In this document: one piece after another, positions 1 to 34,460 of the stretch
How positions within the stretch are numbered: the stretch's first letter is position 1
Layout of the letters: every line of letters begins with the position of its first letter
Source: Pseudomonadota bacterium
Lineage (GTDB): Bacteria; Campylobacterota; Campylobacteria; Campylobacterales; Sulfurimonadaceae
DNA: 52,444 bases
Assembly (NCBI GenBank): GCA_043797085.1
Contig: JAZDQA010000003.1
Span: forward strand, 1 to 52,444
Direction: 5' to 3'
Made by a program: the position numbers and the translations under genes
Notes under the pieces: generated by a model
The model's input: the letters and a program-made list of their open reading frames with translations, nothing else
The model's database searches: none
Told to the model about the DNA's origin: nothing

Positions 1-74
1 TGGACAATGCCAATCCGAAACTGGAGCTTGACGATCTCTCAGCTCAGTATCCATTTCGAGGGACGACTCGATAG
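1..74 (+). CDS. Possible 3' end of a gene starting outside the window (..DNANPKLELDDLSAQYPFRGTTR*)
   Basis: Open frame from the window edge to TAG at 72-74, followed by AT-rich intergenic DNA; too short to identify. Confidence 0.3.
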   Translation, partial: DNANPKLELDDLSAQYPFRGTTR

Positions 75-224
75 CGCTTTAAATTTATGATACAATTTTA
101 GGAACTACTAGATGCTGACACAGAATTCTGAACAGTCCCTATAAAATCTATCATAAGCCTCTATAATAGACGATTATCCTTATTTTAAAACACTAATTTT
201 TATAGTTTCAGAATCACTTTTCTT

Positions 225-331: not shown

Positions 332-1252
332 TCAACCTCCTAAATAATGCTCCGTAATGTTCGCGCGATTATGCTTCATTTCCCAGCTCACCGCTTGCAG
401 GCTCTGCTCATAGGTATAACCTGCTTTGGCGTATTCCATCATCCGCCGCTTTGCAAAATTCCACCTAAGTCCGTGCGATCCCTCTGGCTTCATGCCCATT
501 TTCTCAGCAGCGGCACGAATATCATAACTGTATTTTTGGCGATCGATTTTGAAACGTTTATTGGTTTGAAAATGGTATAAAAGTCGATTGTAGGTAGTAG
601 TTGATACCAACACATCACCTTGCTTGCCCCCCTTCTCAGTAGTAAATATTACCCCTTTCTCAGTAGCAGTGATTGGATCAAATCGGATGCCATGCATTTG
701 CTCAGGCTTAATGAGTCCAACTCCCTCGATGCGTGCACCACTTTCATATTGAATCGTTGCCGCTAAACGATGTGTGGATTCTATTAGCGATGCGATCACT
801 ATAAGTGGATATTTATAAGTACGATTGTGGTAATTATTGGCAACGAGTTTCAAATCTCGTGACGTATTTAAAACGTCTTGACGAATCGAAAAATCATACT
901 CACCCGCTTCACCGTATTTAGACAAGGTATAGCGCTTTAAGGCAATCTCTAATTTACCCATAGATGAGGATATCTTCTCTAAATACTGCTTGCTGACATG
1001 ATATTCTGACTTGTACTCCATATAAGAAGCGACCATTTCGCCGGTAATTAATATTGGATCTTTGATTTTCCAATGTTCTCTCAAATAGTGAAAGAAATTT
1101 TCCCAAACGTCACGATACGCTTTGGCGGTCTTATATGAAGCTATGCATTGAAAATGAGGATGTGCCTTATCGACACGTTCTGTTTTTTTAGCCCCTTCGA
1201 CAAATATGGTTTTAATCAGCTCTGCCGATTGGTAATAAACAGATCCTCGCAT
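332..1252 (-). CDS. Tyrosine recombinase-superfamily protein (short, 306 aa)
   Basis: Catalytic set R (GARIEG), K (EKGGK), HxxR (HGLR), H (MKHNR), Y (EHYL); N-terminal SAM-like helical region. Confidence 0.85.
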   Translation of the reverse strand: MRGSVYYQSAELIKTIFVEGAKKTERVDKAHPHFQCIASYKTAKAYRDVWENFFHYLREHWKIKDPILITGEMVASYMEYKSEYHVSKQYLEKISSSMGKLEIALKRYTLSKYGEAGEYDFSIRQDVLNTSRDLKLVANNYHNRTYKYPLIVIASLIESTHRLAATIQYESGARIEGVGLIKPEQMHGIRFDPITATEKGVIFTTEKGGKQGDVLVSTTTYNRLLYHFQTNKRFKIDRQKYSYDIRAAAEKMGMKPEGSHGLRWNFAKRRMMEYAKAGYTYEQSLQAVSWEMKHNRANITEHYLGG

Positions 1253-1512
1253 GTGGTCTTCTCGTTGATGAAATAGGTGAACGGATTAAGCCGCCGTCCG
1301 GCAGTGATGAAAAATCATCGTGTTAAGTCAATCTACTTTATTATTTTCGTGTAAAGCGCAATCACGGCTCTTTTGGTTGCGGTGGTATGAATGACTCGTA
1401 AGTCACTCTGGGCTCCATCGATTTTTAGATTCATAATTTAAAAACAAGAGAACAATAACATGGAAATTCATTTGATTTTACTCGGAGTGTTTTGTTGTGA
1501 GAGGTTTTAAAA

Positions 1513-1625
1513 TTGCTCGGTTTCTATTTTACAGATAAATATAGCTTGTAGTCCCCAGTAGAGGGGACTAGGAGAGTTTGACAAAATACTTTGTGAAAAT
1601 GCCAAAAGAAATGCTTTTTGAATGG
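1513..1625. repeat. 113-bp direct repeat, copy 1 (left boundary of the RM cassette)
   Basis: Ungapped alignment to 11754-11866, 15 mismatches by manual count; contains cttgtagtcccc-agtaga-ggggactaggag. Confidence 0.95.
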
Positions 1626-1685
1626 TTGAGAAAACGTCTTTAGAAAAATAAATAGTCAAGAAAATTTCAAAATTTAGTTTATTAC

Positions 1686-2378
1686 CTAAAGAGACAATGT
1701 CATCCCGTTGTTTTTAAGCCATTCTTTTTTCTTCTGATAACCGGGCATAATTTTACCCAGCTCTTTCCAGAAGCGCTCGCTGTGTGAATGTTCTTGCAAA
1801 TGGGTCAACTCGTGAGCAATAACATAATCAATAATTGAAAGCGGTGCCATCGCGATCTTCCAGTTGAAATTTAGAATCCCTTCTTTAGAACATGATCCCC
1901 ATCTATATCCTAGATCAATCACCCGAATAGAGGGAAGATTCTCCTTTTTAAATCCGAATACGTGCTTGAGCCGCTCATTGATCTTTTCTTCAAGACGTAC
2001 GCAATACCAACCGATAAAGCATTTTTTAGCTTCTCTTTGATGATCTCGGCTTAGGCAAAACCATCCCTCATGCATTTTCAGTGGCTTTTCCTGAGCATCC
2101 ATTAATTTCATCCGATACCGTCGTCCCAGATACTCGAAACTCTCCCCTGTAATAAACTGTTTTTGAGGTGCTTCACTGTTTTGATGCTTCTTGATCACCT
2201 GCTTTTCCCATATCCATAGTCGCTTGTCATTGACATGTTTTTCAACGGCTTCTTCGGTAACGATTTCAGGGGCAGAAACGACTACGCTTCCATCACGCTC
2301 AACCGATATACCGATCGTTTTACGCCCAGAGCGTTTGAGCGTATACTCAATGAGTGAGTTTGAGGGTTTTAAGCGCAT
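1686..2378 (-). CDS. YgjP/DUF45 (M48-like) zinc metallohydrolase associated with type I RM
   Basis: RWGSCS, NFNWKI and DYVIAHELTH (HExxH) motifs; likely start ATG at 2378, overlapping the hsdR end. Confidence 0.85.
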   Translation of the reverse strand: MRLKPSNSLIEYTLKRSGRKTIGISVERDGSVVVSAPEIVTEEAVEKHVNDKRLWIWEKQVIKKHQNSEAPQKQFITGESFEYLGRRYRMKLMDAQEKPLKMHEGWFCLSRDHQREAKKCFIGWYCVRLEEKINERLKHVFGFKKENLPSIRVIDLGYRWGSCSKEGILNFNWKIAMAPLSIIDYVIAHELTHLQEHSHSERFWKELGKIMPGYQKKKEWLKNNGMTLSL

Positions 2379-5300
2379 GATGATTTTTTTCACATAGGTG
2401 CATAAACTCGGGCTTGAGCGTTGTGATTGCACCGATTAGAGATTTATTTTTTGTCGAAGCAAGTCGCCCTACCAGAACATTTTCGAGCTCTTTACGGGAA
2501 CTTTCTCCTGTTGTTCCCCAAAAATCTACTTTTTGAATTTCTCTTGCCGCGATTTCAACCGTATCAATCACAAGCTGCAATAGCATCTCTTGTATTGGTG
2601 CATCAAGATCTGCTTCTCCTAGTGGTGTACGAAATAGTCGGTAAAACGGCATACATACATCACATCCAATCTCAGCAAAAAATGGAAGTATTTCACTGCC
2701 AGCTTTGACATCATCAATGAATTTGGAAAACTTTTTAACCAGTTCATCCCACTGCCCTTGATGCTCTTTGATAATTTTTTCGAGTTTCTCCGCCAATGAG
2801 CGATAATAAATCGGATCTTTATCCATATTGATTTTGATGGTGTACCGCAGTGCATGTTCCATCTCAGAAGCTATCGCCTTCTCAGAACGACCTCGAAGTG
2901 CATCGGCAAATTCATCATCAAAAATTGATACGGGACGAACTTTTACACTTACCCCTTTACTGGTTACGAACTCATCTATGAGGGCTTTCACCTTAGCGCC
3001 GACCCCCTCGATGGCTAACTCTGGATCACGGTAACGGCGGAGCGCTTCGAGCTGGACCAATCCCCAGACTTTGGCATCATCAAGATAAAACTTTTTGATT
3101 GGATGCGGAAGGATAAAATCGATGATACGAGTAAAATCACGTAAAAGGACTTTGAACTCTTGGCGTAGCTTCTCATCGGCAAGTAAAACCACAGCATCTT
3201 CGAGTGTCTCTTCGGAGACTTCAGAGATCTTATACTCCGCAAAAAACTGGACAACTTTGCGATGATTACTCTCAAGGGCTTCGTACTCTTCACCAAAATC
3301 ACTCATAATTCCTTCAATATCGCTGGCTTCATAATTGGATAACGCATCCCTAAGATGATGCCCTACACCAAAATAATCGACGATTAATCCCCTGGATTTG
3401 CCGGTACTGGTTCGATTAACCCGTGCAATTGCCTGAAGTAGGTTATGGGCAACAAGCTTTTTATCCAAATACATTACCTGCTCGATCGGTGCATCAAATC
3501 CCGTAAGGAGCATATCACTGACGACGATAAACGCTAATTGTGATGTTTTTTCACCATCAAAAATTTCATCCTCATTATTGCTTTCACACGGATTGATAAG
3601 AAAAAGAGATTTTTTAAACTGCGTGACACTGCTTTCACGATGTTCTTTGGTTGTAAAACGGGGTGGAAATTCATCAGGATTATCATTGTGCTTTTTCGAG
3701 ATGACCACTGCCACACTGAGCCGTCCAACAAGTTTTTTAAGCGGGTTGTCATCCTCCATAGTATTATGATATTCTCGAATTGCCTCACTCAGTGCTTCAT
3801 GATAACGCAGTGCCGCCAACCTTGAGCTCGTAACAACTTGCGCTTTGAATCCATTCGGGAGGATATTGGTCACATAGTGCTCGACCATATCACGGGCGAT
3901 GGCTTGGATACGCTTAGGTGCGGAGAGGATATCCCCTTTGGTTCCGTATTTTTGTTTGATCTTTTCTTGTTGCTCTGACGTCAGATCCGCAAACATATCT
4001 TCAAACGCCGAATCAAATCCGCCATCACTAATCAGAGCATCGTGTGAAGTTTTCCCCTCGTAGATGATCGGCACCGTCGCGCCGTCTTTAACCGCCTGAG
4101 TGATCGTATAGGTATCAATGTATTCTCCAAACGACGTAACTGTTTTTTCGATAGGTGTACCAGTAAACGCGATACGGGCGGCATTGGGCATCGCGATACG
4201 CAAGTTTGCCCCCAGTTTGGAATACTGGCTGCGGTGTGCCTCATCGATCATTACAAGAATTTCATGTTTGTCACTGAGCTGTTTATACTCTTCGTCATCA
4301 TTGAACTTTTGCATCATGGTCATAACGATGTCGCTAGTATCATTGGAGAGAATGGCTTTGAGCTTTTTAGCCGAATCAGCAGTAATGATTTTTTCACCGG
4401 TTAATGCCGCTGTCTCTTCGAGCTGGTCTTGTAAATCGGTCCGATCGACGACAAAAACAATCTTATAGTTTTGCATTGATGCGAGTGTTCGGCTGTATCG
4501 GATTAAGAAAACCATTGTGAGGCTTTTACCGCTTCCTTGAGTATGCCATACCACTCCGCTTCGTTCATCTGTTTTAGAGTTACTTACGACCCGCTCAATC
4601 GTTTTTTTAACGGCACGGTATTGCTGATAGCGACAGGCTATTTTTATTCTCTTACGACCGCTTCCCATGACAGAAACAAAGCTTTGGACTATTTCAAGGA
4701 GATTTCTAGGAGAAAGTACTCCATACGCCATAATCGCTTGTTCATCACTTCCGCTTTCTTCCAGTGTGTAAGGATATGGATCTTTCCATCCCAAAAAGTG
4801 CTCTAGCGACGAGCTGATTGTACCTACTCGTGCATGAGTTCGGCAGGTGGCGATGAGAAGTGCATTGGTAACAAAAAGTTGCTTAGCCCCTTCACGTGTT
4901 TGAGTACCACGCGTATCGGCATAGCGTCGCATCTGCTTGACCGCTTCATCGATCGGATCGGTGACATCTGGAGCTTTGCATTCGATGACGACAAGCGGGA
5001 TACCGTTGACGAAAAGAACGAGATCAGGGACAATCGTCTCTGCTCCTTCGATCAAAAACTGCGAGACGACAAAGAAATCATTATTTTCAGGGTTCTCAAA
5101 ATCGATGTAACGTACGGTGGGAGATTTTTGCCCTGTGATGGGATTGAGATCAACTGAGGTGTTTTCCAGCAGGAGCTTAGTAGCGGCTTCGTTACTCTCT
5201 AGCAATGATCCGCTACCGCTTCGCTCCAACGTCGAAACGACCTCATGGAGATGTTCGTCGGTAAGCCAGTCGCCATTAATACGGGTGAGAGATTCTTTGA

Positions 5301-5469
5301 GCCGCGTACGCAATATTGCCTCTTTGAACGAACTACGTCCTAGCAGAGCCTCTTCGTTGCGATGTTTGTTATTGAGATCATCAACTCGGTGAGTGGTCCA
5401 CCCAAGCTTTTTGAGCAGTTCCAGCAGGTTATCTTCGACAAAAGCCTCTTCGCGAATCCATTGGCTCAT
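2347..5469 (-). CDS. hsdR: Type I restriction endonuclease subunit R
   Basis: PD..ECK nuclease motif (PDLVLFVNGIPLVVIECK), WHTQGSGKS Walker A, DEAHRSQY, FTGTP, MLLTGFDAP, QAIARVNR. Confidence 0.97.
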   Translation of the reverse strand: MSQWIREEAFVEDNLLELLKKLGWTTHRVDDLNNKHRNEEALLGRSSFKEAILRTRLKESLTRINGDWLTDEHLHEVVSTLERSGSGSLLESNEAATKLLLENTSVDLNPITGQKSPTVRYIDFENPENNDFFVVSQFLIEGAETIVPDLVLFVNGIPLVVIECKAPDVTDPIDEAVKQMRRYADTRGTQTREGAKQLFVTNALLIATCRTHARVGTISSSLEHFLGWKDPYPYTLEESGSDEQAIMAYGVLSPRNLLEIVQSFVSVMGSGRKRIKIACRYQQYRAVKKTIERVVSNSKTDERSGVVWHTQGSGKSLTMVFLIRYSRTLASMQNYKIVFVVDRTDLQDQLEETAALTGEKIITADSAKKLKAILSNDTSDIVMTMMQKFNDDEEYKQLSDKHEILVMIDEAHRSQYSKLGANLRIAMPNAARIAFTGTPIEKTVTSFGEYIDTYTITQAVKDGATVPIIYEGKTSHDALISDGGFDSAFEDMFADLTSEQQEKIKQKYGTKGDILSAPKRIQAIARDMVEHYVTNILPNGFKAQVVTSSRLAALRYHEALSEAIREYHNTMEDDNPLKKLVGRLSVAVVISKKHNDNPDEFPPRFTTKEHRESSVTQFKKSLFLINPCESNNEDEIFDGEKTSQLAFIVVSDMLLTGFDAPIEQVMYLDKKLVAHNLLQAIARVNRTSTGKSRGLIVDYFGVGHHLRDALSNYEASDIEGIMSDFGEEYEALESNHRKVVQFFAEYKISEVSEETLEDAVVLLADEKLRQEFKVLLRDFTRIIDFILPHPIKKFYLDDAKVWGLVQLEALRRYRDPELAIEGVGAKVKALIDEFVTSKGVSVKVRPVSIFDDEFADALRGRSEKAIASEMEHALRYTIKINMDKDPIYYRSLAEKLEKIIKEHQGQWDELVKKFSKFIDDVKAGSEILPFFAEIGCDVCMPFYRLFRTPLGEADLDAPIQEMLLQLVIDTVEIAAREIQKVDFWGTTGESSRKELENVLVGRLASTKNKSLIGAITTLKPEFMHLCEKNHHALKTLKLTH

Positions 5470-7256
5470 TGTATTCCTTTAGCTCTATAAGCTTGCTGTG
5501 GATGATTGGCTTCTGGATACTTTGTTACTAAAAGCCCCTCTTTGACCATGGGAGACAAATATTTATTTCGCAAAGTAATGACTTTACGATTTAATAAAGG
5601 TGCAAGCTCTTGCTTTGTGTAATAAGCGTTTGAGCATAGAACCATTATGGCTTCTCGCACCGATGGCATGGGTGCTCTTGAATGATTTCTCACGTATTCG
5701 ACAACTTCGTTAAGGTGCAAGCTCGGATCTGTAAGGTGCAAGCTCTCATCCTTATGATGCAAGCTCTCGGTAGAGTCGGATAAGGAGTATTTCATCCCTC
5801 GACCAACACCATCAGGTGTTAAGACTCCTTTATCCACCAATGAGCGCAAAATCTTTGTAGCATCTGCTGAATGTAGTGCCGCAACACTACTAAGTCGCTG
5901 ATTACTCACCTCATGCTCTGCGTATGCCAAGATTAATGCAATGCGTTCATCTTTATGGAGAAGACTATAGAGCTTACCATACTTCTCTTGCAACGTATTT
6001 TGGATTTCTGGAGGGAACAGACTTACCGTAGGAAGATAGAGCGTAGTCGTTTCATATTCAAAATCTTCATCGATACTCGGGAACTGCCAATGCTGTTCAT
6101 GCCATGCTCGTAACATCTTTGGAAAACCTGACCCTGCTTGTTCACCCCATCCTATGAACTGAAACATCTTTTGCAGTGTTTTATTACGGCAATCACTCCG
6201 ACCGCCTTTAAAAATCTCACTTTTACTGACCCGCATAATGCCGGGATTACGGAAACTGTATCCATCAATGTGTTTGATAATCAACACCCCGATATTACCG
6301 TTATAGTTTGCATGCACGAGCGAGTTAACCAATGCTTCACGAAGCGCTTCATGTACATGCGTTTCATCCACACGTTGAAGTCCATCTTTGAGCTGAAACG
6401 GTACTTTCAAATCAGCCAAAAGCTTACGAGAGGTTTTAATAGCAAAATCATACAGATTGCCCGACCATGTTCCATCGGTTGTAATGCGATCGATCCAACG
6501 ACGATCCGGATTTTCATCTTTTTCTTGATAATCCACCAGATAGTTTGGTATACCATCTAAAATTGAGCGCATCTTTCCAAACATCAGCAAACCGGCGATT
6601 GTCAGCCCCTCACTTTGATTGACTCTATCGACTCCATATCCACCAATCGAGATTAAAAAATCCTTGTCACTTTGATGACTAAATGGGTGATCGAGTTTAA
6701 AGCTATTGAACACATTTCGGTAACGGTGTAAAGAGTCCATATCCAGATCATCGAGAGTGAAATTTTTGAGGATTTTTGTGTCATTCGAGTCATTCACTGC
6801 ATCAGCGAGCAAGTGACGAACGATCTCATCTTTGGCCTTGATGTCAGATTCATGATAACGCAGATACGTTCCTACTAGAGGATTTTGTCCCATATATACA
6901 GGACGCTTTTTTCGATCGGCACGTGGGACATGAATGAGTAACAGATTCATTCCATCACAGTTGATCACCTGTACGTCTGAACTACCAAGGAGATTATGGC
7001 TGATTTTTTGAGGGTTGTTGATCTGTGTCCAAAACTGCTGTTGAACTTTTTCGATGTTGTTGATTCCGAGAAACTGCAACGAACCGTCTTTATGCTCTTT
7101 GGCTCCCAGCAATATCATTCCGCCATCGGTATTGGCAAAAGCAACATACGTTTCCCACAGTTCATTGGGGAGTTCGCCGTTACCGTCACGACCTTGGGCA
7201 GCTTTGGCTTCAAAGGAAGTACTTTCTTTAAGTTCGAGGAGTTCAGTGCAGGTCAT
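5466..7256 (-). CDS. AlbA_2/Schlafen-like domain + RecG-C-like (HATPase_c_4) + winged-helix protein
   Basis: ESTSFEAK..ETYVAFANTDGGMILLG (AlbA_2); ALREALVNSLVH, NPG, CRNKTL, EQAGSG (HATPase_c_4); C-terminal wHTH. Confidence 0.85.
   Translation of the reverse strand: MTCTELLELKESTSFEAKAAQGRDGNGELPNELWETYVAFANTDGGMILLGAKEHKDGSLQFLGINNIEKVQQQFWTQINNPQKISHNLLGSSDVQVINCDGMNLLLIHVPRADRKKRPVYMGQNPLVGTYLRYHESDIKAKDEIVRHLLADAVNDSNDTKILKNFTLDDLDMDSLHRYRNVFNSFKLDHPFSHQSDKDFLISIGGYGVDRVNQSEGLTIAGLLMFGKMRSILDGIPNYLVDYQEKDENPDRRWIDRITTDGTWSGNLYDFAIKTSRKLLADLKVPFQLKDGLQRVDETHVHEALREALVNSLVHANYNGNIGVLIIKHIDGYSFRNPGIMRVSKSEIFKGGRSDCRNKTLQKMFQFIGWGEQAGSGFPKMLRAWHEQHWQFPSIDEDFEYETTTLYLPTVSLFPPEIQNTLQEKYGKLYSLLHKDERIALILAYAEHEVSNQRLSSVAALHSADATKILRSLVDKGVLTPDGVGRGMKYSLSDSTESLHHKDESLHLTDPSLHLNEVVEYVRNHSRAPMPSVREAIMVLCSNAYYTKQELAPLLNRKVITLRNKYLSPMVKEGLLVTKYPEANHPQQAYRAKGIQ
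5711..5773. repeat. Three degenerate 21-bp tandem repeats inside the CDS (7-aa xSLHxxD linker)
   Basis: taaggtgcaagctcggatctg / taaggtgcaagctctcatcct / tatgatgcaagctctcggtag. Confidence 0.8.
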
Positions 7257-8205
7257 TTACAGTTCCTTTATTCGTGTTCAAACCATTTGAAGCGCCATTC
7301 GCCCATCTGGCAAATTCTATCTCACAATCACCTAATAACGCATCTGCGATTACTCTCGGATTTTTTTCCAATAACTCAAACACATGTCTAGATTCAGCAT
7401 TCAAATCAGACTCTCGAAATGGTACCCCATGAAATAATTTGTCACGGAGACGTCCAGCTATTTCAATCCGGTCAAATCTGTAATCAACACCATGTTCTGA
7501 ACACTGCATAATTGCAGACTCTTCCAATCCAAGCAATATTTTTACTGCTTTACGCGAACCGATTCCATCTGCTTTAAGTTTATATGCCAAACTTTCCAAA
7601 CATGAAAACAATCTGGCTATTTTAAACACCTCATTTCTCTCGGCAGTTGCATCTTGATATAATCCAATCGCAAACAAAAAATGCTCATCTTTTTCTCCAG
7701 CTTGTATCATTCGTTCGAGTTGATCGGAGAAATCATTCCCAATATTTCCGAATCCAAGCCGTTGTCGCATTCGAGAATGCGGAGGTAGCATTCGAAAATA
7801 AGTCTGTTCTTGTGTTGCAGTGACATATGCAAATGGCACAAGAGAATCACCCGACGCCCAACTAACAATTTTTTCTGGAATAGAAAACATACTTTCGGCT
7901 ATTTGTTCCATTGCTTCAGGGGTATGATCGCCATTGATAATAGCAACAAAAGCGATTACTGGCTTTGCGGACTCTCCCTGTTTTTTAAGAGTATCAAGCG
8001 CTATTTGATCTACTTCACCACGACATATTTCAATGACATATTTAGCGGTATAATCAGCTTCTTTATCAAAACCTAAAGGGCGAAAGGGAATAGCATATAC
8101 ATCATCTTTTAATTTCAAAGGTTCTTGTAAAAAGCCACCTTCCATCAGCTTATGAACAGCGGGGCGCATTGATAGAATTTCTCTGACTTCGTCAATCCCT
8201 ATCAT
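7243..8205 (-). CDS. Putative HEPN-domain (ApeA/MauJ-like) RNase
   Basis: C-terminal LFSCLESLA helix and Rx4H motif RDKLFH(G); overlaps both neighbours. Confidence 0.6.
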   Translation of the reverse strand: MIGIDEVREILSMRPAVHKLMEGGFLQEPLKLKDDVYAIPFRPLGFDKEADYTAKYVIEICRGEVDQIALDTLKKQGESAKPVIAFVAIINGDHTPEAMEQIAESMFSIPEKIVSWASGDSLVPFAYVTATQEQTYFRMLPPHSRMRQRLGFGNIGNDFSDQLERMIQAGEKDEHFLFAIGLYQDATAERNEVFKIARLFSCLESLAYKLKADGIGSRKAVKILLGLEESAIMQCSEHGVDYRFDRIEIAGRLRDKLFHGVPFRESDLNAESRHVFELLEKNPRVIADALLGDCEIEFARWANGASNGLNTNKGTVNDLH

Positions 8206-9461
8206 CCCTTCACCCTAACATCCCCACTCAACAAATCCCCCATCAACCCTTTTTTGAGGTTTCGAAGTTTAGCGAGATTGGTCTCTTCGGTTTCGATTTT
8301 ACGATCTTGGGCAGAAAGGATAGCAGCAATTTTTTCTTGTTCATAAGATAATGGCATTCCGAGTAATGTTCTATCTACAAGTTGTTTACTCAGATTAGGC
8401 TGACCAGATCCTTGTGCTTGAAAAAGTAATTTTGGCATTGCATAAGAAAGAGCATAAAAAACAAAATCATTGCAATCTGAATTTATAGGAATAGCCAAAA
8501 CCGCTTGATTCGAACAAGCATCAATTTTTAGATATGCTATCTGACCAGCTGTTGCACCATACATCGCAACTAAAATGGTATCTTTTTTAATTAACTTTGT
8601 ACTTGAATTTTTTAGTGCTTCTTCAGTAATTTTTTCTTCGGTGTCATAAATTTTGTTTTGATTGACTTCTCCTGATTTAACCCACGGAATATGCCCACTG
8701 TAATAAGATTCAGTGCCACGATCTGGCGTTCCACCAGCAAATGTTTTACTGATGTTAACAATTGCTTTTACTTCCCACCCCTCCGGAATCATCCCCAACG
8801 GACTATCAACATACGTGTGCGTTTGAGGTGAGCGGATGCCCCCCTGCTCATCGATACCATGCGTCAACAAATCCGTCATCAGCCCTTTTTTGACCATTTT
8901 CTCTTTCTCGATCAACTTTTGCGTTGCTTCGATGGTACGGTCGAGAGTGGAGAGGATGGTTGTAATTTTTTTTTGTTCAACTAAACATGGAATTTTTATT
9001 TGAAGTTTTTCAATTCTAAATAATGCCAGCTTGGGCTGCACAGCAGCTCCTATATAAGTCATAATTTCTTGTTGAACATTATCGGAATTAATTTGATAAG
9101 ATAAAAAATCCTTATCAACATTTTTAATTTCACATATTTTTGCAGCATTCTCTGTTAAATTACCATTGTGAAGAACTTCTGGAATTACACCAGCAATACC
9201 AACCGTACCAGCAATTGATATATAAACATCTTCTTTGCTGATGATATATCGTTTGACTTTGATATGAGTCTCTTCGTCAATATATTTTAAGTCTGCAAGT
9301 GAAATTGTTCTTTCTAAGAAATCAGTTACGCGTATATATGGGTGTTCAGTTTTATCAATAACATATTCGGCACCTTCAGGCAACCGTTTTCCACCCATAA
9401 CTTTTGCAAAATCAGCTATCTTTTTAACTTCCCACCCCTCAGGCACCATCATCGCACTCAC
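8202..9461 (-). CDS. hsdS: Type I RM specificity subunit
   Basis: Two TRDs each starting PEGWEVK; conserved EQKKI..L and LKKGLM..LL helices. Confidence 0.96.
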
Positions 9462-11671
9462 GCCAAATATCCCAATTCAGCTAGATAGGTTTCGAGTTCA
9501 CTCATCGCACTGTCTCGCTCGGTACGGATTTCTCCCAAGCTCACCTGATACTTATCCCAGAGATTTTCGATAGTCGAAATAATCGACTGTTTACGCTCCG
9601 ACAAATACCCCTGCGCCAACTCACGACATGAGATAGCTAGCTCATCGATGACATACCTCTGTGACTCTGTGAGCATCGCGAAAAGCTCGATCTTCAACTC
9701 TTCGATTGTTGAACGTATCGGCTGTTTGAGCGTCTCTTCTTTGGCATTGGAGAGTTTTTTCATTTGATCGGCAATTTTGGCTCGAATCGCAAGCGTTTCG
9801 TCACTCATCGATTCTGCGAACAAAGGTGAGTTCAATACATAGCTATCACTTAGCAATGCTGCGTCCCATCCGCTCGTTTTGATCGATTTGACGATGTATT
9901 TGTGGCGTACCCACCAGTTAGCAAAGATTCCCCGTACTTTAAACCGATCGAGGACGCTTGAGGCTTCAAATGCCTCTTCGATCGAGCTGTAACCAGCTTT
10001 GTATAGAGTAGAGACATCGATAGTATTATTTTCCACGTGGGCGATAAAACGATCAAACCACGCTTGAGTGATATTCATCACCGTCTCATCGGTTGAGTGG
10101 AACGCTTCGCTCTCTTCGAGTGTTGTACGGATCGCCTCACGGCTCTCAGGAATAAAACTATAGGTTCTCTCATCTCTATCCGAAAAAATCAGTTCTGGAG
10201 TGATCCCATACGTCTCCATTAACGTCGTATTCCACTCTAGTTTAGGAATCCCTCCGAGCAAATGCGCTTTCACATCATGCGGTTGGGATGGTGGAGTGTT
10301 ATCCACATAACGACGGATGTTGAGATTGTACTCTTCAGTATCGATATCACTGAGAGGAACGAGACGGGAGTATGCAGGAATCTCAAGGCGTGCGTGATAG
10401 GTGAAATTGATCTTCTCGATGTCTTCGGCACGGAGGATGTTCTGGTTCGAGGATTCGCGATACTCAGCATCGGCGTTGATAAAGAGTACTTCGTCATGTT
10501 GAGCCGATTTATCGATGATTAGCAAACACGCAGGGATACCAGTACCGTAAAATAGACCCGATGGCAAACCGATAACTGCTTGGAGGATTTTCTTCTCCCC
10601 GACGAGGTAACGGCGAAACTGCTCCTCTTCACCCCCACGGAAAAGGACACCGTGAGGCATAACCACCCCCATCTTTCCGGTAGGTTTGAGAGAGGCTATC
10701 ATGTGCTGTACAAACATGAAATCGGCTTTCTTTCCCCCCTCCGGCATGAAGTGGCTAAAACGCTCTTTGTATTGCATCTCTGATTTTTTGTAGTTTTGAC
10801 TAAACGGAGGATTGGCGATAACACGGTCAAACTGCATCAACCGACCCTCACGTGCATGAAGCGGAGTCTCTAATGTATCTTCGTTTTGGATATCAGCATG
10901 GGCAACACCGTGCAAGATCATGTTCATCTTACACATCGCCCATGTCGTAGCAACCGCATCTTGACCGTAGAGGGCAAAATCATCGGAGTTGTAGATCTCA
11001 CGGATATGCTCTTTCGCCTGAATCAGCATCCCGCCGCTTCCTACGGTAGGGTCATAGATACTCATTCCCGGTTGTGGATCGAGGAGTTTAACGAGGAGCG
11101 TTACGACACTACTAGGAGTATAAAATTCTCCCGCTTTTTTACCGGCAGAGTCAGCGAAGTATTTGATCAGATATTCATACGCTGCACCAAGTAAATCAGG
11201 GAACTCAAAATCCTCATCACGCAAACGGATTTTATCGAAGTGCTGGATCAGTTCAATGAGCTTGCTATCGCTGATTTTGGAGTTACCGATCTTTTTATTA
11301 AAATCGATATGCCCCAATACCCCCTCAAGACTTTTGATATTTGCCTCTTCGATTGCCATCATCGCGGTATTGAGAATCTCACCTACGTTTTTCTTCGCAT
11401 GACGAATCGTATTCCAGTGACCATGGAGAGGAACCGTAAACGCAAACGCATGGGTGGAGAGAAGCAGATCAATCGTTTCACTATCATGCCCATCAGATTC
11501 ATACCCATGACGTATAATTTCTCGCTGCGCATCGTATTGATCCGAAAGACGTTTGAGAAACAGCATCCCAAAAATATACTCTTTAAACTCACTCGCTTCC
11601 ATCTTACCGCGAAGGATATCTGCGGCACTAAAAAGATGTTGTTCGAGTTGGGAAAGGGTGAGTTTGCTCAT
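9458..11671 (-). CDS. hsdM: Type I RM N6-adenine methyltransferase subunit
   Basis: AADILRG N-terminal domain, [17 protein letters not shown] motif, NPPF catalytic motif, PHGVLFRG. Confidence 0.97.
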
Positions 11672-11753
11672 AGATAAAACCGTTCAATTAATGTAATGGT
11701 TTATTATAGAGCGTTAGGGCTGAAAGGGAGTTTTTGGAAGTGAATTTTGTTTT

Positions 11754-11866
11754 TTGCTCGGTTTCTATTTTGCAGAAAAAGATGGCTTGCTATCCCCAAG
11801 AGAGGGGACTTGGAGAGTTTGACGAAATACCTTGAGAAAACGCCAAAAGAAATGCTTTTCGAATGG
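11754..11866. repeat. 113-bp direct repeat, copy 2 (right boundary of the RM cassette)
   Basis: Aligns ungapped to 1513-1625; core cttgctatcccc-aagaga-ggggacttggag. Confidence 0.95.
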
Positions 11867-12953: not shown

Positions 12954-12986
12954 AAAATCCCTCCTAAATATACAATTTGACATTTC

Positions 12987-13294
12987 TGTCTACCTCTAAT
13001 ATGTTTTTTTAGGAAAAAATTTACAAATCCAATATTTTTTTTAAATTTTTGCTTATTCCTCTGTAACTAAATTAAAAAAAAGTTAAATCCAGTCACGCTT
13101 GATGTCTGACTAGAAAATTTTCTTTTTCAGCATTCGATTGATTTTAAATGGTCCTTGAAAAAATTCCACGATAAAACATATTATAGGTAGACAAGAATAT
13201 ATGAAGAAAAAAATGATCTTTGAATACCCAACTAAATATTAAAAAATTCGACTTGAAAAAAAATCTGAAAAAAAAACATATTATAGGTAGACAA
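12987..13294. repeat. Three copies of a ~21-bp motif aaaacatattataggtagaca (one inverted, two direct)
   Basis: Direct copies at 13173-13194 and 13273-13294 (exactly 100 bp apart); inverted copy with one mismatch at 12987-13007. Confidence 0.9.
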
Positions 13295-13443
13295 AACTAT
13301 AAGGGGGTGCAATAAACATAGATTTTTGATTTAGGTTCAAATAACATAAAACGCATAAAGAAGGTAACAATAAATGTTTAGGCATCTAAGTGTTCGCGCA
13401 CATAGATGGCTTTTTATTAATCTCGATCAGGAGGAAACTAAAC

Positions 13444-14640
13444 GTGTCTATTATAACAACAATCGAATTGGATCTATGTAAAAAAAAGGAAATTAAGGCT
13501 CGAATCGAAGAGTTGCAAGAGCATACTCGTAATGAATTTGCAACGATGGAACAGGTTGAAATACTCAATAAAGAAATTGAAGTACTAAAATCTCAAATAT
13601 ACTTTTCGGATCAAAAAAAGAACTTTGACGATAAATTGGAGTTAGCTTTTGATAAATTCGATCTCGATTTATCCCAATTTGATCGAGTGAAATTGAAATT
13701 CATCAAAAATGGGCTAATTGTAAAAAATGAAGTAACAATGCTTGCAGCCAAACCCTCAAGCGGAAAAAGTCTTGTAGCGATAGCCATGGCTAATATGGCC
13801 CTGAATGAAGATAAAGTCAATCGGGTAATTTATTTTGATTACGACAATGGTTTAGCTACGTTACGTGATCGAAATATTCATCATTTAATCAAGAAACATG
13901 GTCGTCGTCTACGCTATATTCATGAATCTCAGATGAATAAACAAGAGCTTGCATCATTATTGAAGCAATTGGAATCAACTGATCTGTATGATACATTTAT
14001 TATCTTCGATAGCATAAAACACTTTCACAAGGGGGATCGCGATAAGAATAAAGATTCTTCCATCACCATGGAAATGCTTAAACGATTAAGACGCCAAGGT
14101 GCGACGATCCTCTTTCTTCATCATACCAACAAGCCCCAACGTGACGTTTTAGAGCTACAGTATGCAGGTTCAAGTGCATGGGAGGAAGATTCATCAAATG
14201 CGTTTGTTTTGCAAAACAATCCTTATAAAAAGACTTTTATTTTTACACCTTTCAAGTCTCGGATCGGCGATCTTAAGCCGATTGCCTTTAAATACATTGC
14301 TAATTTACATAAGCTTGAAGAGGTAGAGCTAAACTTGGCACAAGATACGGAAGACAAGGAAGTAATCCGAAATGAAATTATTGCCTATTTGATAAGTTGT
14401 GAATCACCACCAAACGCTACTTCGATTAAAAAACATCTAGCCACTGAATGTGGTTATACAAATAACGATAAAGTCAATATTGTACTTCAAGCAGGCAAGG
14501 GACGGTTTTGGAAAGCTACAAAACTCAAAGAGAAACATAATATGGATATCTTTGAATTAATTCCTAAAATACATACAGATAACTCAGATATGTCAGATAT
14601 GCCTCAAAATACTAAAATAACAGGAGCAACAAATGCCTAA
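13444..14640 (+). CDS. AAA_25/RepA-helicase-like P-loop ATPase with N-terminal coiled coil
   Basis: Walker A AAKPSSGKS, Walker B IIFDS, LHHTNK and YAGSSA motifs; RBS aggagg before GTG at 13444. Confidence 0.8.
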   Translation: MSIITTIELDLCKKKEIKARIEELQEHTRNEFATMEQVEILNKEIEVLKSQIYFSDQKKNFDDKLELAFDKFDLDLSQFDRVKLKFIKNGLIVKNEVTMLAAKPSSGKSLVAIAMANMALNEDKVNRVIYFDYDNGLATLRDRNIHHLIKKHGRRLRYIHESQMNKQELASLLKQLESTDLYDTFIIFDSIKHFHKGDRDKNKDSSITMEMLKRLRRQGATILFLHHTNKPQRDVLELQYAGSSAWEEDSSNAFVLQNNPYKKTFIFTPFKSRIGDLKPIAFKYIANLHKLEEVELNLAQDTEDKEVIRNEIIAYLISCESPPNATSIKKHLATECGYTNNDKVNIVLQAGKGRFWKATKLKEKHNMDIFELIPKIHTDNSDMSDMPQNTKITGATNA

Positions 14641-14815
14641 ATTACTTACATTTCGCGAGATCGAACGTGTTTTTGGTTTGAAAAAAAACACCTTAACAAA
14701 AAAATATTATAAAGGGAAATTCATTCCATCAGTAAAAGTTGGAAATCGGAATTATTTTGAGGTATCGAAAATTGAAGAGTGGATAAAGACTAATTCGATA
14801 GACATGGCTTCATGA
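14633..14815 (+). CDS. AlpA/Xis-like HTH protein (putative recombination directionality factor)
   Basis: 60 aa, LLTFREIERVFGLKKNTL..GKFIPSVKVG..IEEWI pattern; RBS ggag; next to the integrase. Confidence 0.8.
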   Translation: MPKLLTFREIERVFGLKKNTLTKKYYKGKFIPSVKVGNRNYFEVSKIEEWIKTNSIDMAS

Positions 14816-14848
14816 TAGTTGAGTGGGGATAGAACCCCCTCAACTATC
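14814..14848. terminator. Hairpin between convergent xis and int (likely bidirectional terminator)
   Basis: gatagttgag/ctcaactatc perfect arms plus gggg/cccc inner stem, overlapping both stop codons. Confidence 0.7.
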
Positions 14849-16090
14849 AACCCATTTTGCATTTGCATCAATTCGCCCATGTATTTTATCTAAATAAAAT
14901 TGGTAAATTTCATCGGCTAATTTTGCATTTTGCGAAGCATAACGAGCAGTAATATTACTGCGTGTGTGACCCAATACTAAAGCCCTCAACTCTTCATTTA
15001 CCCCACTATCACGGAGTATTGTACCGATAATATGCCGCAAATCGTGGATATGTAATTTATCTTTTATCTTTGCGATTTTTAAGACTTTATCCCAATGATT
15101 GCGTACGGTTGAACCATCCATTACTGTATCATTTTGACTTGGATGGATTAGCACTTTTTTATTTTCCAAGGTTTCAAGCATTTCAGGTCGCAAGACAAAT
15201 GTAATGCGTGTGCCTGCCTTATTTTTATCCGGAATTACATGAAAAATCCCACGATTTAAATCGATATAATCCATAGTTAATGTCAAGACTTCACTCAATC
15301 TTCTACCGCTACCTAGCCAGACAAATATATCCCTGTATTTAGGTACTTCATAGTTCATCATCGCATCATAAAGTGATTTAGCCATTGGTATTGAAACAAG
15401 AACCTCTCGTTTATTATCAAGATCTCCTATATCAATGTCGGCAGGATTAAGTTCATTGATCTTATTTTGTTTATGAAAACGTTTGATTAGGGGAGAAAGA
15501 GCTTCAGTCACTTTTTTTGATGTTCTTTTACTTCTTGTCAGTTGAATTTGCTTTATTAAATCTTCAATATGCTTTTCTCGAATATCCACTAAACGCTTAC
15601 GACTCAATGGAGTATCTTTAATCCACCTATTGTAAAATGATTTCATATCTTTAGCAGTAGATGGTTTCCAAGATTGTTTGGCATTGACTGTCGTTTCCTT
15701 GAAGGGAACATAATCCTTATCCCAATACTCTTCAAGCGTGATATTTAATTTTGCTTCTTCGTCCTCTTTTGCTCTTGTATCTTCATATGATTCAAATATT
15801 TTTGGAGTAATTATCTCTTCACGGAAATCATCACGCTGATTATTAACTTTATCAATAGCTCTTTTTAGGGTAATACCAGCTTCCTCAAAAGTAAATGTAC
15901 GTTTAGAAGTAATTTTCTTTTCATTTTTTAGAACTGTAGTGCGCAAAATGAGTTTAAATGGTGGTTTGACTTTTCTAACATGCATATCTGTATCAATTAC
16001 ATCAATATCAAATATATTGGCATTATCTTCGAGATAGATTCCCTTGCACTTATACCCTTTGATATCTATTTTAATTAAGCGTTGAGCCAT
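14840..16090 (-). CDS. int: Tyrosine integrase of the island
   Basis: GRRLSE, NKAG, HIHDLRH, LGHT..ITARY catalytic motifs; RBS aaggaa supports start at 16090 (MAQRLI). Confidence 0.92.
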   Translation of the reverse strand: MAQRLIKIDIKGYKCKGIYLEDNANIFDIDVIDTDMHVRKVKPPFKLILRTTVLKNEKKITSKRTFTFEEAGITLKRAIDKVNNQRDDFREEIITPKIFESYEDTRAKEDEEAKLNITLEEYWDKDYVPFKETTVNAKQSWKPSTAKDMKSFYNRWIKDTPLSRKRLVDIREKHIEDLIKQIQLTRSKRTSKKVTEALSPLIKRFHKQNKINELNPADIDIGDLDNKREVLVSIPMAKSLYDAMMNYEVPKYRDIFVWLGSGRRLSEVLTLTMDYIDLNRGIFHVIPDKNKAGTRITFVLRPEMLETLENKKVLIHPSQNDTVMDGSTVRNHWDKVLKIAKIKDKLHIHDLRHIIGTILRDSGVNEELRALVLGHTRSNITARYASQNAKLADEIYQFYLDKIHGRIDANAKWVDS

Positions 16091-16123
16091 TATATTCCTT
16101 TCGGCATATTTGCTATACTCCAA

Positions 16124-16148
16124 GGGTACAACTTTGGGGTACAACTTT
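16124..16148. repeat. Tandem 12-bp direct repeat gggtacaacttt x2 (putative integrase arm-type sites)
   Basis: Perfect copies at 16124-16135 and 16137-16148, about 100 bp inside the att core. Confidence 0.65.
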
Positions 16149-16248
16149 ATAGGCATAAACATATCCAAATATACCTAAATAAGCAACTAAAACATTTATA
16201 ATATAGCCTAAAACAAGCAAATAGGCATCATTAAGCATAGATATCATA

Positions 16249-16298
<50 letters not shown>

Positions 16299-16372
16299 AA
16301 CCTTCTTTTTACTTCAATCTTTCATCCATTTAAGCGCCAAGAATAATCACTAAATGAAATTTCACCACAATA

Positions 16373-16906: not shown

Positions 16907-17057
16907 TACAACTCCACCCTAAACGCTTTATTCAAAATAGATCCTTTCAACGCTTTGAGACTTTCCATCTTGTCATGCTGAACTCGTTTCAGCATCTCTG
17001 TTTTTCGGATACAGAGTCCAAATAGTCTACGACTTATTGTTGGATTGGAAGTGGCGC
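16906..17057 (-). pseudogene. hsdS: C-terminal remnant of an hsdS gene
   Basis: Manual translation PLPIQQ*VVDYLDSVSEK, frameshift, TEMLKRVQHDKMESLKALKGSILNKAFRVEL*, the conserved HsdS C-terminal helix. Confidence 0.8.
16971..16998. repeat. REP-like palindrome tgtcatgctgaactcgtttcagcatctc
   Basis: atgctgaa/ttcagcat stem with GTCA tag. Confidence 0.55.
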
Positions 17058-17189
17058 TTTTGAGTCTTCGAGATCATTGAGAAATTTTAAAAATAGTATC
17101 CAACTGATTTGTTCTGTATAGTACATAGCACCGCTAATACCGTCATCACGACGAAGTATGTCTGTTATTCTATTGATTTTTGATTCCAA
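17058..17189 (-). pseudogene. hsdM: N-terminal remnant of an hsdM gene, fused in frame to the hsdS tail
   Basis: TTG start with RBS aagga; LESKINRITDILRRDDGISGAMYYTEQISWILFLKFL is an HsdM N-terminal signature. Confidence 0.85.
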
Positions 17190-17190
17190 A

Positions 17191-18006
17191 TTAATCCTTT
17201 TTAAATATATTCAATTCATACAAATCATTAAATTTATTAGTTATTCTAGAAACAGCATTAAATGCTATTGTGTCGTCATCATAATTGTCAGATAATTTTT
17301 TATATATATTTAATTGAGAAAGTTCATATATTTTTTTTGGAGACAATGCTGTCGAGTATAAACGATTTGCTTGATTAGCAATAATTAAGTAATGTAGTAA
17401 AATTAGATATGACATTTTTAATCCAAAATATATATCTTTTTTTAATAAGTACAAGTCATTTTCTAAATTTACAACATTTATATTACTAATTACGATATCT
17501 CTTAAATTATCATATAATAAAATATATTTTTCAATTAATGGTATTTTGCTTATAAAATGAGCTAATGAGTCTGATTTTTCACATTTACTATTAAAAATAT
17601 AAATATCATTTTTACAATCTAATACTTCTGCAATTGATTTTTCCATTTCTGTTAATATCATAATATATCTATCAAAATCATTTTTAGTTGATTGAATCTC
17701 TAACTCTTTTAATTGATTTGAATAAAGTATATTTTGTTCTTTAAATTGTTCCGTCTGATTTTCAAATTCCTTTCTCTGCAAACCAAATTCTTTGCTTTGT
17801 ATGAAAATTCCATATGCTAACCATAAAAAAGCTAGTATGCTAAAATGACCAGATGTATAGTCCCCTAACACACCTTTTTCTTCTAATGTAATATTGCCAT
17901 CCATATAAAAATTAGCATTGGGATATTCACTAATACTAAATCCAAATAGAAAAAAGAAGTAATGCACCAATACTATAAGTGTAATTCCAATAAATAAATT
18001 TCTCAT
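17191..18006 (-). CDS. Hypothetical very AT-rich membrane protein (2 TM + coiled coil + soluble domain)
   Basis: GVLGDYTSGHFSILAFLWLAYGIFIQSKEF..QRKEF pattern; ATGA coupling to the hsdR remnant. Confidence 0.75.
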   Translation of the reverse strand: MRNLFIGITLIVLVHYFFFLFGFSISEYPNANFYMDGNITLEEKGVLGDYTSGHFSILAFLWLAYGIFIQSKEFGLQRKEFENQTEQFKEQNILYSNQLKELEIQSTKNDFDRYIMILTEMEKSIAEVLDCKNDIYIFNSKCEKSDSLAHFISKIPLIEKYILLYDNLRDIVISNINVVNLENDLYLLKKDIYFGLKMSYLILLHYLIIANQANRLYSTALSPKKIYELSQLNIYKKLSDNYDDDTIAFNAVSRITNKFNDLYELNIFKKD

Positions 18007-18278
18007 CGATAAATCTCTTTCTGCAATTCTAAATATTCATGTCCCATTTGAAGTATCCAACCAAAATTGGATGCAACTTCTCGGATCGTCCACAATCCGC
18101 TCAAATCCACCAACTTACCGAGCTTATCATCATCTAACTCTTTCACACCGTCTTTACGGTATCGATCCAGTATGAATATGAAATTTCTCTACGAAATCGA
18201 AGTTTTCAATGGCAACAACTCGCTCATAACGGCTTTTGACATCCATATTGAACGAGTATCTGATTCAGAGAGTACCAT
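18003..18278 (-). pseudogene. hsdR: Internally deleted hsdR remnant (type IB/EcoEI-like)
   Basis: Starts MVLSESDTR; after frame changes ends FILDRYRKDGVKELDDDKL..NFGWI..YLELQKEIYR*, resembling the EcoEI_R_C domain. Confidence 0.72.
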
Positions 18279-18503
18279 TATCGATTCCACTGCTTAAGTT
18301 ATAAGTAATCACTATTCTAGCCAAAATAATGTCAAAATCGTAAATATTTCAAAATAATGAATAACTATAGCTGTATAAAGCGTCAATTATAAGATGACAT
18401 TTCTATTTTAAAAAGCGCAATCCAATATTATTTGTCGTTTAAGTTATGAATAACTCTGCTTGTACTATTCTATAAGTATCCCATTAATAAGAGAGAGTGC
18501 GGT

Positions 18504-34374: not shown

Positions 34375-34432
34375 AAAAAACCTTGGGAAAATATGAAGGG
34401 ATTATAGTACGGAGAGGGTAAAGAGGAGCTTT

Positions 34433-34460
34433 GATTCCGTGCCATGACACGGAATAACGG
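34433..34460. repeat. REP-like hairpin / possible terminator
   Basis: attccgtg-ccatga-cacggaat; similar to 258-286. Confidence 0.5.

Follow-up and report, generated by a model that had tools for sequence, protein, structure and literature searches.

A candidate transfer origin of a TcpM-like mobilisation module, present in two copies around a restriction-modification operon on a Campylobacterota defence island

The closest described counterpart of the locus considered here is the TcpK-oriT-TcpM region of plasmid pCW3. Its oriT opens right after tcpK with 9-bp boxes spaced 3 bp apart (PMC6137059). TcpM is a relaxase of the MOB_M class, for which a profile has been published (bioRxiv 10.64898/2026.01.13.699239), and its activity is described as needing only the Tyr (PMC12857230). 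MobK of plasmid pIGRK is a proven relaxase (PMC8152469). A further comparison is offered by SGI1, an island with an integrase and a second tyrosine-recombinase-like protein whose gene has an oriT upstream and an RNA between oriT and gene (PMC6414798, PMC9299015). The SGI1 oriT and MpsA are reported in PMC6414798 and PMC8409611, and a small RNA (sgm-sRNA) encoded between oriT and mpsA is required (PMC9299015). The account in PMC6414798 leaves the nick site of this relaxase unmapped.

Other systems resemble the locus in different ways. TnpI of Tn4430 is a tyrosine recombinase encoded beside IRS, a 116-bp site in which an inverted core is accompanied by accessory direct repeats (PMC2847244), and an IncA/C locus that mimicked an oriT turned out to be such a resolution site (PMC5587640). 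TrwC, a relaxase of the HUH type, is described as integrating DNA at a second copy of oriT (PMC3264647), which is one route to two sites around cargo.

The window, by which we mean the whole 52,444-nucleotide stretch of DNA analysed, contains two 113-bp direct repeats (1513-1625 and 11754-11866) that align without gaps with 15 mismatches and lie 10,241 bp apart (Table 1). BLAST of the 2.40-Mb genome with the repeat gave the pair at E = 5e-33, no third copy, and a next match at E = 0.046. Between the copies, at distances of 60 and 82 bp, lies an operon of six ORFs that is by its gene content a type I restriction-modification (R-M) operon, predicted to act in anti-phage restriction; such cargo is described as ordinary on islands of this kind (PMC10484663). 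A sequence-only reading of this DNA had described the repeats, the six-gene R-M operon enclosed by them, near-inverted arms around a short spacer in each copy, and a second tyrosine recombinase starting 260 bp from copy 1. All of this held up on closer analysis: the arms of copy 1 are complementary at 10 of 12 positions and those of copy 2 at 7 of 12, and the recombinase is recognisable by its catalytic residues and its predicted fold.

Table 1. Features of the repeat locus and the surrounding island, in window coordinates.
Feature	Position	Strand	Remarks
306-aa tyrosine-recombinase-fold protein	332..1252	-	related to relaxase TcpM; proposed relaxase
Conserved structured leader	1279..1421	-	stem with UNCG-like loop, then pseudoknot-like element; at proximal copy only
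Site copy 1	1513..1638	-	array ~1575-1638, hairpin 1545-1574, GAAAC block 1514-1530
YgjP-like metallopeptidase	1686..2432	-	
HsdR	2347..5469	-	
Schlafen/AlbA_2 + RecG-C-like protein	5466..7256	-	
320-aa protein	7243..8205	-	no family match; between HsdS and AlbA_2 genes
HsdS	8202..9461	-	
HsdM	9458..11671	-	
Site copy 2	11754..11866	-	array, hairpin 11786-11815, GAAAC block 11755-11771; without leader and without gene
Gene B, 182 aa	11878..12426	-	weak fold likeness to Pur-alpha/Whirly single-strand binders
Gene A, 186 aa	12423..12983	-	C-terminal HTH-like segment
AAA_25 helicase-like protein	13390..14640	+	
HTH_17/AlpA-like protein	14633..14815	+	probable excisionase
Island integrase	14840..16168	-	
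51-bp exact copy of tRNA-Met 3' part	16249..16299	+	attachment-site end of island

Comparison of the cassette DNA with 300 genomes of the order gave no close match except one 66% piece. The hsdS gene contains internal repeats (8228-8257/8864-8893 and 8766-8793/9423-9450). Its stretch 8342-8766 is replaced in two metagenome runs, X2 and X14, which points to a swapped target-recognition domain. The 320-aa gene nested in the operon (7243-8205) is a candidate defence gene.

The left 16.3 kb of the window is an integrative mobilisable element, with an integrase, a probable excisionase and a tRNA attachment site, and no conjugation pore of its own; the other att end lies off the contig, which breaks at repeated sequence. 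No coupling protein (PF02534) was found in this genome, which is 96% complete, so no helper is in view. The AAA_25 protein is probably the replication protein. A 44-bp direct repeat and a matching inverted copy (13158-13301 and 12982-13007), between gene A and the AAA_25 gene, are a candidate replication origin or operator of the element. The family of gene A is present at 55 of 80 loci, with weak HTH matches in 6 of 48 members, and a tblastn search with it against plasmids gave no match. The predicted model of gene B is only weakly similar to the Pur-alpha/Whirly folds (best Z 6.7, rmsd 4.2, 108 aligned). Just past the tRNA-Met copy, in AT-rich DNA, are short fragments resembling another methyltransferase gene together with other decayed cargo (17034-17189 and 18003-18297), possibly the remnant of an older island. 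Repeated sequence lies at window 1-140 and 231-291: the start of the contig recurs at other contig ends, and a separate palindromic repeat of ~55 bp is found at many places in the genome and at 34430-34459 of the window.

In architecture alone, the locus has the same order as pCW3: an accessory gene, boxes with a 12-bp period directly after its stop codon, a spacer and a tyrosine-recombinase-like gene. It differs in belonging to a Gram-negative island without a conjugation locus, in having two accessory genes unrelated to TcpK, a structured leader and a site doubled around cargo, and in the 23-26% identity of its protein family to TcpM. As on SGI1, an integrase is accompanied by a second tyrosine-recombinase-like protein with a site upstream and a probable RNA in between. 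However, the SGI1 oriT is GC-rich with three inverted repeats, and its MpsB lies downstream. With TnpI/IRS, the locus shares a ~115-bp site that lies next to a tyrosine recombinase and combines direct repeats with an inverted pair, but here there are no conserved arms, no transposase, and two extra proteins. Cre/loxP, Xer/dif and IntI/attC share the fold and the catalytic residues, whereas the arms found here are variable, without a fixed motif, and are accompanied by an off-centre constant block, and there are no cassette arrays. Nor does the locus resemble an integron, as the 306-aa protein had no NCBIfam integron-integrase match and never more than two sites were seen in 95 loci.

The repeat is the core of a family-wide site that consists of an array with a 12-bp period, a hairpin whose sequence varies and, away from the centre, a conserved GAAAC block. 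Transfer origins are laid out in this way, with a constant block next to a variable array and hairpin. A matrix trained on 42 upstream regions recovered 35 of 42 left-out sites above the same threshold. In this genome it marked three places: both copies and the region upstream of a gene encoding a 55% paralogue of the 306-aa protein. The site is thus tied to the protein family rather than scattered, as the sequence-only reading had supposed. It was found at 79 of 95 distinct loci, part of which had trained the matrix, and 53 of these 79 have A or B at most 2.6 kb upstream. Two sites were present at one of the 95 other loci (L261, with HipA cargo), a count in which only 38 loci had more than 10.6 kb of upstream sequence.

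Across 73 non-redundant sites, autocorrelation of the array peaks at lag 12 (z = 15.6 relative to shuffled sequences), and the far side lacks this peak. Of the 12 positions in the hairpin arms, 6.5 on average are complementary, compared with 5.2 in flanking controls, and the commonest left-arm 7-mer occurs in just 4 of the 73. The GAAAC block is constant throughout, a figure that is partly circular because the sites were anchored on GAAAC. In an unanchored alignment of six near copies, the longest constant run lies at the GAAAC block and not at the arms, which vary in sequence and are 6-10/12 complementary (in a fixed register; G054 is shifted). The arms differ between sites of proteins that are 83-92% identical, and the constant block lies ~35 bp off the centre of the hairpin at 1545-1574. 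By eye, the alignments revealed no motif common to the core arms and the array repeats. The likeness of copy 1 to relatives G054 and G058 extends to ~1638, where gene B has its stop codon in the empty form. The right ends of the repeats, 11 bp beyond GAAAC in the window and ~62 bp beyond it in L261, differ and hence do not mark a nick. No T-run follows the hairpin 3' on the gene strand, and Rfam had no match in the repeat.

A pattern scan of 301 genomes returned single sites upstream of known homologues and other matches at about the control rate. Five further genomes scanned for the site gave nothing new, and 141 candidate stretches in viral contigs included no relative. A 17-base pattern used on metagenomes was too short, yielding 120 stretches with the true site only in L153. 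At one locus (L061:11155-11269), the site is inverted and lies 3.9 kb from the gene; the ORF adjoining this gene is presumably serine-recombinase-like.

The leader between site and gene is likely an RNA. Its first motif, from 44 distinct sequences, has UNCG-like loops and a covarying flank pair (C-G in 22, A-T in 20). The second was collected from 53 sequences, 47 of which form a second stem of 5-6 pairs with covarying sequence when the best register is chosen for each. RNAalifold found double changes at 11 of 17 pairs, and Rfam had no match in the leader. A longer inserted arm is seen in some members, and the leader of one subfamily is different.

The 306-aa protein had no match in Pfam, NCBIfam or PHROG, and a single-protein sequence search of the PDB gave none. 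Its predicted structure (pLDDT 86.6) has the two-domain fold of a tyrosine recombinase, with a core-binding-like and a catalytic domain, and Foldseek matched it to XerH (E = 1.8e-6) and also to IntI4, XerA and Cre. This fold and the catalytic set R-K-H-R-H/W-Y place the protein in the tyrosine recombinase superfamily: R174, K207, H260, R263, H294 and Y303 are invariant in 33 of 33 close homologues, and the six positions are kept in 129-131 of 131 family sequences. Homologues are found in 45 of 300 genomes of the family and 19 of 300 of the order, and make up 1028 clusters at 50% identity in the library searched. The closest named relatives of the gene are labelled Sulfuricurvum.

Profile comparison points to TcpM as the closest characterised relative of this family. 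A profile built from 111 members was scored against MobK, TcpM, 38 other tyrosine recombinases from the DNA of this study, and the PDB. TcpM reached 53.6 bits, compared to at most 22.3 for the 38 recombinases and 1.1 for MobK; the PDB scores were 39.9 (IntI4), 27.5, 21.9 (XerH) and at most 16.6 (Cre). The family thus appears closer to TcpM than to ordinary recombinases (53.6 vs at most 39.9 bits), although by a modest margin and as scored with its own profile. The TcpM match extends to the catalytic Tyr, while the PDB matches end by position 282. In hhalign, the probability was 97.3 for a wide alignment and 53.8 for a narrow one. With TcpM as the query, the family had a median of 11.2 bits and a top score of 33.1, and the best ordinary recombinase 13.9. 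On these scores, the link to TcpM is real but distant. No TcpK-type winged-helix partner was recognised in A or B (hhalign probability below 1 for both).

Homologues also occur on plasmids. The 35 plasmid records concerned are not independent, some being near-identical; 30 of them are typed as non-mobilisable, 3 as mobilisable and 2 as conjugative, and pIGRK is likewise typed non-mobilisable. The four small plasmids examined each have a Rep, a gene of the 306-aa family and a long upstream spacer, and one plasmid holds both a family gene and a MOBP relaxase. A 900-bp plasmid, pTRACA61, was considered as an excised circle and rejected, since it is a piece of pTRACA63 with no site at the joint. 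The neighbourhood was surveyed through 90 proteins chosen from 1047 ORFs at 80 loci: their families include R-M, BREX, CBASS, AIPR, GmrSD and reverse transcriptase, and no canonical relaxase or coupling-protein family was among them.

The empty backbone that had been predicted, geneA-geneB-site-gene, exists in three related genomes and in two metagenome studies. A strong single match to the site was found in 3 of 150 relatives, each with this order, and 16 more had short, weak matches. The metagenome comparison covers contigs from 4 of 24 runs, in four studies, none of the same strain. In run X1, a 688-base contig joins gene B to position 1638, and in run X2 two joints with short sides connect 1624-1625 to B or A. 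In run X14, one contig spans the gene, the site, ygjP and hsdR, and another consists of hsdM and the last 19 bp of copy 2, followed by 104 unaligned letters.

The filled form is kept in several lineages. Locus L153 has hsdR-ygjP-site-gene in common with the window; the genes upstream of these are of CBASS type, and within 10 kb there is no second site. Against L153, copy 1 is a mosaic, 73.5% identical in the array and hairpin and 92.5-100% on both sides. The stretch L153:13953-19240 stands in place of hsdS and hsdM, before a near-identical hsdR; we take its genes to be a CBASS-type cyclase, an E2 and a WYL-like gene. L261, whose family protein is a 57% homologue, has two site copies (175 bp, 83%) that enclose hipA, an HTH gene and two unknown genes. 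In both the window and L261, the far copy lacks leader and gene, and both pairs begin at the array. Elsewhere in the family, cargo often lies downstream of the gene, upstream of A, or between leader and gene. At L227, L233, L238, L243 and L272, a two-gene module, presumably AbiEi/AbiEii-like, separates the leader from the start of the family gene, at a distance of 1.6-2.0 kb from the site.

On balance, and by no wide measure, we favour the reading that the repeat serves as oriT in a TcpM-like mobilisation module, so far undescribed, of Campylobacterota defence islands, and was doubled when sibling elements merged. It starts from what was observed: the anatomy of the site, its link to the protein family, the likeness to TcpM, and the empty and filled forms. 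The module would have the order geneA-geneB-oriT-structured leader-relaxase. A and/or B would bind the 12-bp array, the variable array and hairpin would set specificity, and the TcpM-like protein would nick one strand at or near the GAAAC block, with transfer through the conjugation pore of another element. Two cores may be present because DNA from two sibling elements merged, through homologous recombination or recombination driven by a relaxase; the R-M operon would then have ended up with a bare oriT on one side and a complete one on the other. Both tandem accretion and decay of such elements (PMC5704250) and relaxase-driven integration into a second oriT by TrwC have been described. Recombination between the copies, or a nick started at one and stopped at the other, could then free or regain the operon as a by-product; with 113 bp of likeness, the filled and empty forms could be exchanged without a special enzyme.

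In favour of an oriT are the top score of TcpM, the lag-12 array, the pCW3-like order, the plasmids typed non-mobilisable, the absence of a relaxase among the neighbours scanned, the mosaic copy 1, and the integrase and att site that the element already owns. Against it count the full catalytic set and core-binding-like domain, kept as in true recombinases, the distant TcpM link, the 1.1 bits of MobK, the unlikeness of A and B to TcpK, the single MOBP co-occurrence and the missing coupling protein. A bolder version is doubtful: the TcpM-related enzyme with its full recombinase site would be a relaxase and also an integrase specific for oriT, partnered by a Pur/Whirly-like protein and by an unclassified structured RNA encoded between site and gene, and defence operons with a bare oriT core would be loaded or released at the transfer origin.

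If the oriT reading is true, defence islands of a common class (45 of 300 family genomes), and also plasmids now typed non-mobilisable, would have a mechanism of transfer, a candidate oriT and a narrowly delimited nick region. TcpM-type relaxases, known from Clostridium, would reach Campylobacterota and, with the 1028 clusters, beyond. The sharp conserved block and the natural two-site substrates make the nick site, and the question of relaxase versus recombinase, directly testable. No earlier paper on this module was found in searches of the open literature.

The main rival, which we consider unlikely, is that the 306-aa protein is a TnpI-like multimer or cointegrate resolvase and the repeat its resolution site with accessory direct repeats; the two-site form would be an unresolved sibling cointegrate with sites that no longer match. 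This agrees with the intact catalytic set, the predicted two-domain fold, the build of IRS, the need of replicating circles and small plasmids for resolution, and the precedent of the oriT mimic on IncA/C. However, IRS has near-perfect arms with a motif in common with its repeats, whereas the arms here average 6.5 of 12 against 5.2 in their controls and no left-arm 7-mer is found in more than 4 of the 73 sites. The higher score of TcpM relative to Xer, Cre and IntI4, and the retention of the filled form in several lineages, also argue against a resolvase.

The sequence-only reading had taken 1545-1574 as a loxP/dif-type core and the site as a dedicated point for loading and swapping defence cassettes. 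The two copies bracket the operon closely, empty forms exist, and the X14 contig that runs from copy 2 into unaligned letters fits cargo behind another site allele. The prediction of other cargo between paired copies came true at L261, an independent pair, and at that one locus only of the 95 others, so routine cassette loading is not supported; most loci with a site instead have A or B close upstream, and cargo often lies elsewhere. A core of this type is not supported: its arm sequence differs from one near orthologue to the next and throughout the family, and what stays constant is an off-centre block. Furthermore, the cargo-side half of copy 1 is not common to L153 despite the same ygjP junction, neither arrays of three or more sites nor site-cargo circles were seen, and the closest characterised relative of the protein is a relaxase. 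A dedicated loading point is therefore improbable and, in the form proposed, poorly supported. A last reading, in which A/B use the array as an iteron replication origin or a partition site and the protein acts in replication of the excised circle, is very improbable: the period is iteron-like and B may bind single strands, but elements and plasmids have separate replication genes (AAA_25, DUF3987, Rep) and the site tracks the 306-aa family, not any one rep type.

The same genome contains a second element of this family (L001, G000:C9:113871-117950), with the 55% paralogue and one site. It also has an A-like gene and a DUF3987-like protein, and adjoins another type I R-M operon. The end of contig C9 overlaps the start of C4, which runs via defence-like genes to tRNA-Met.
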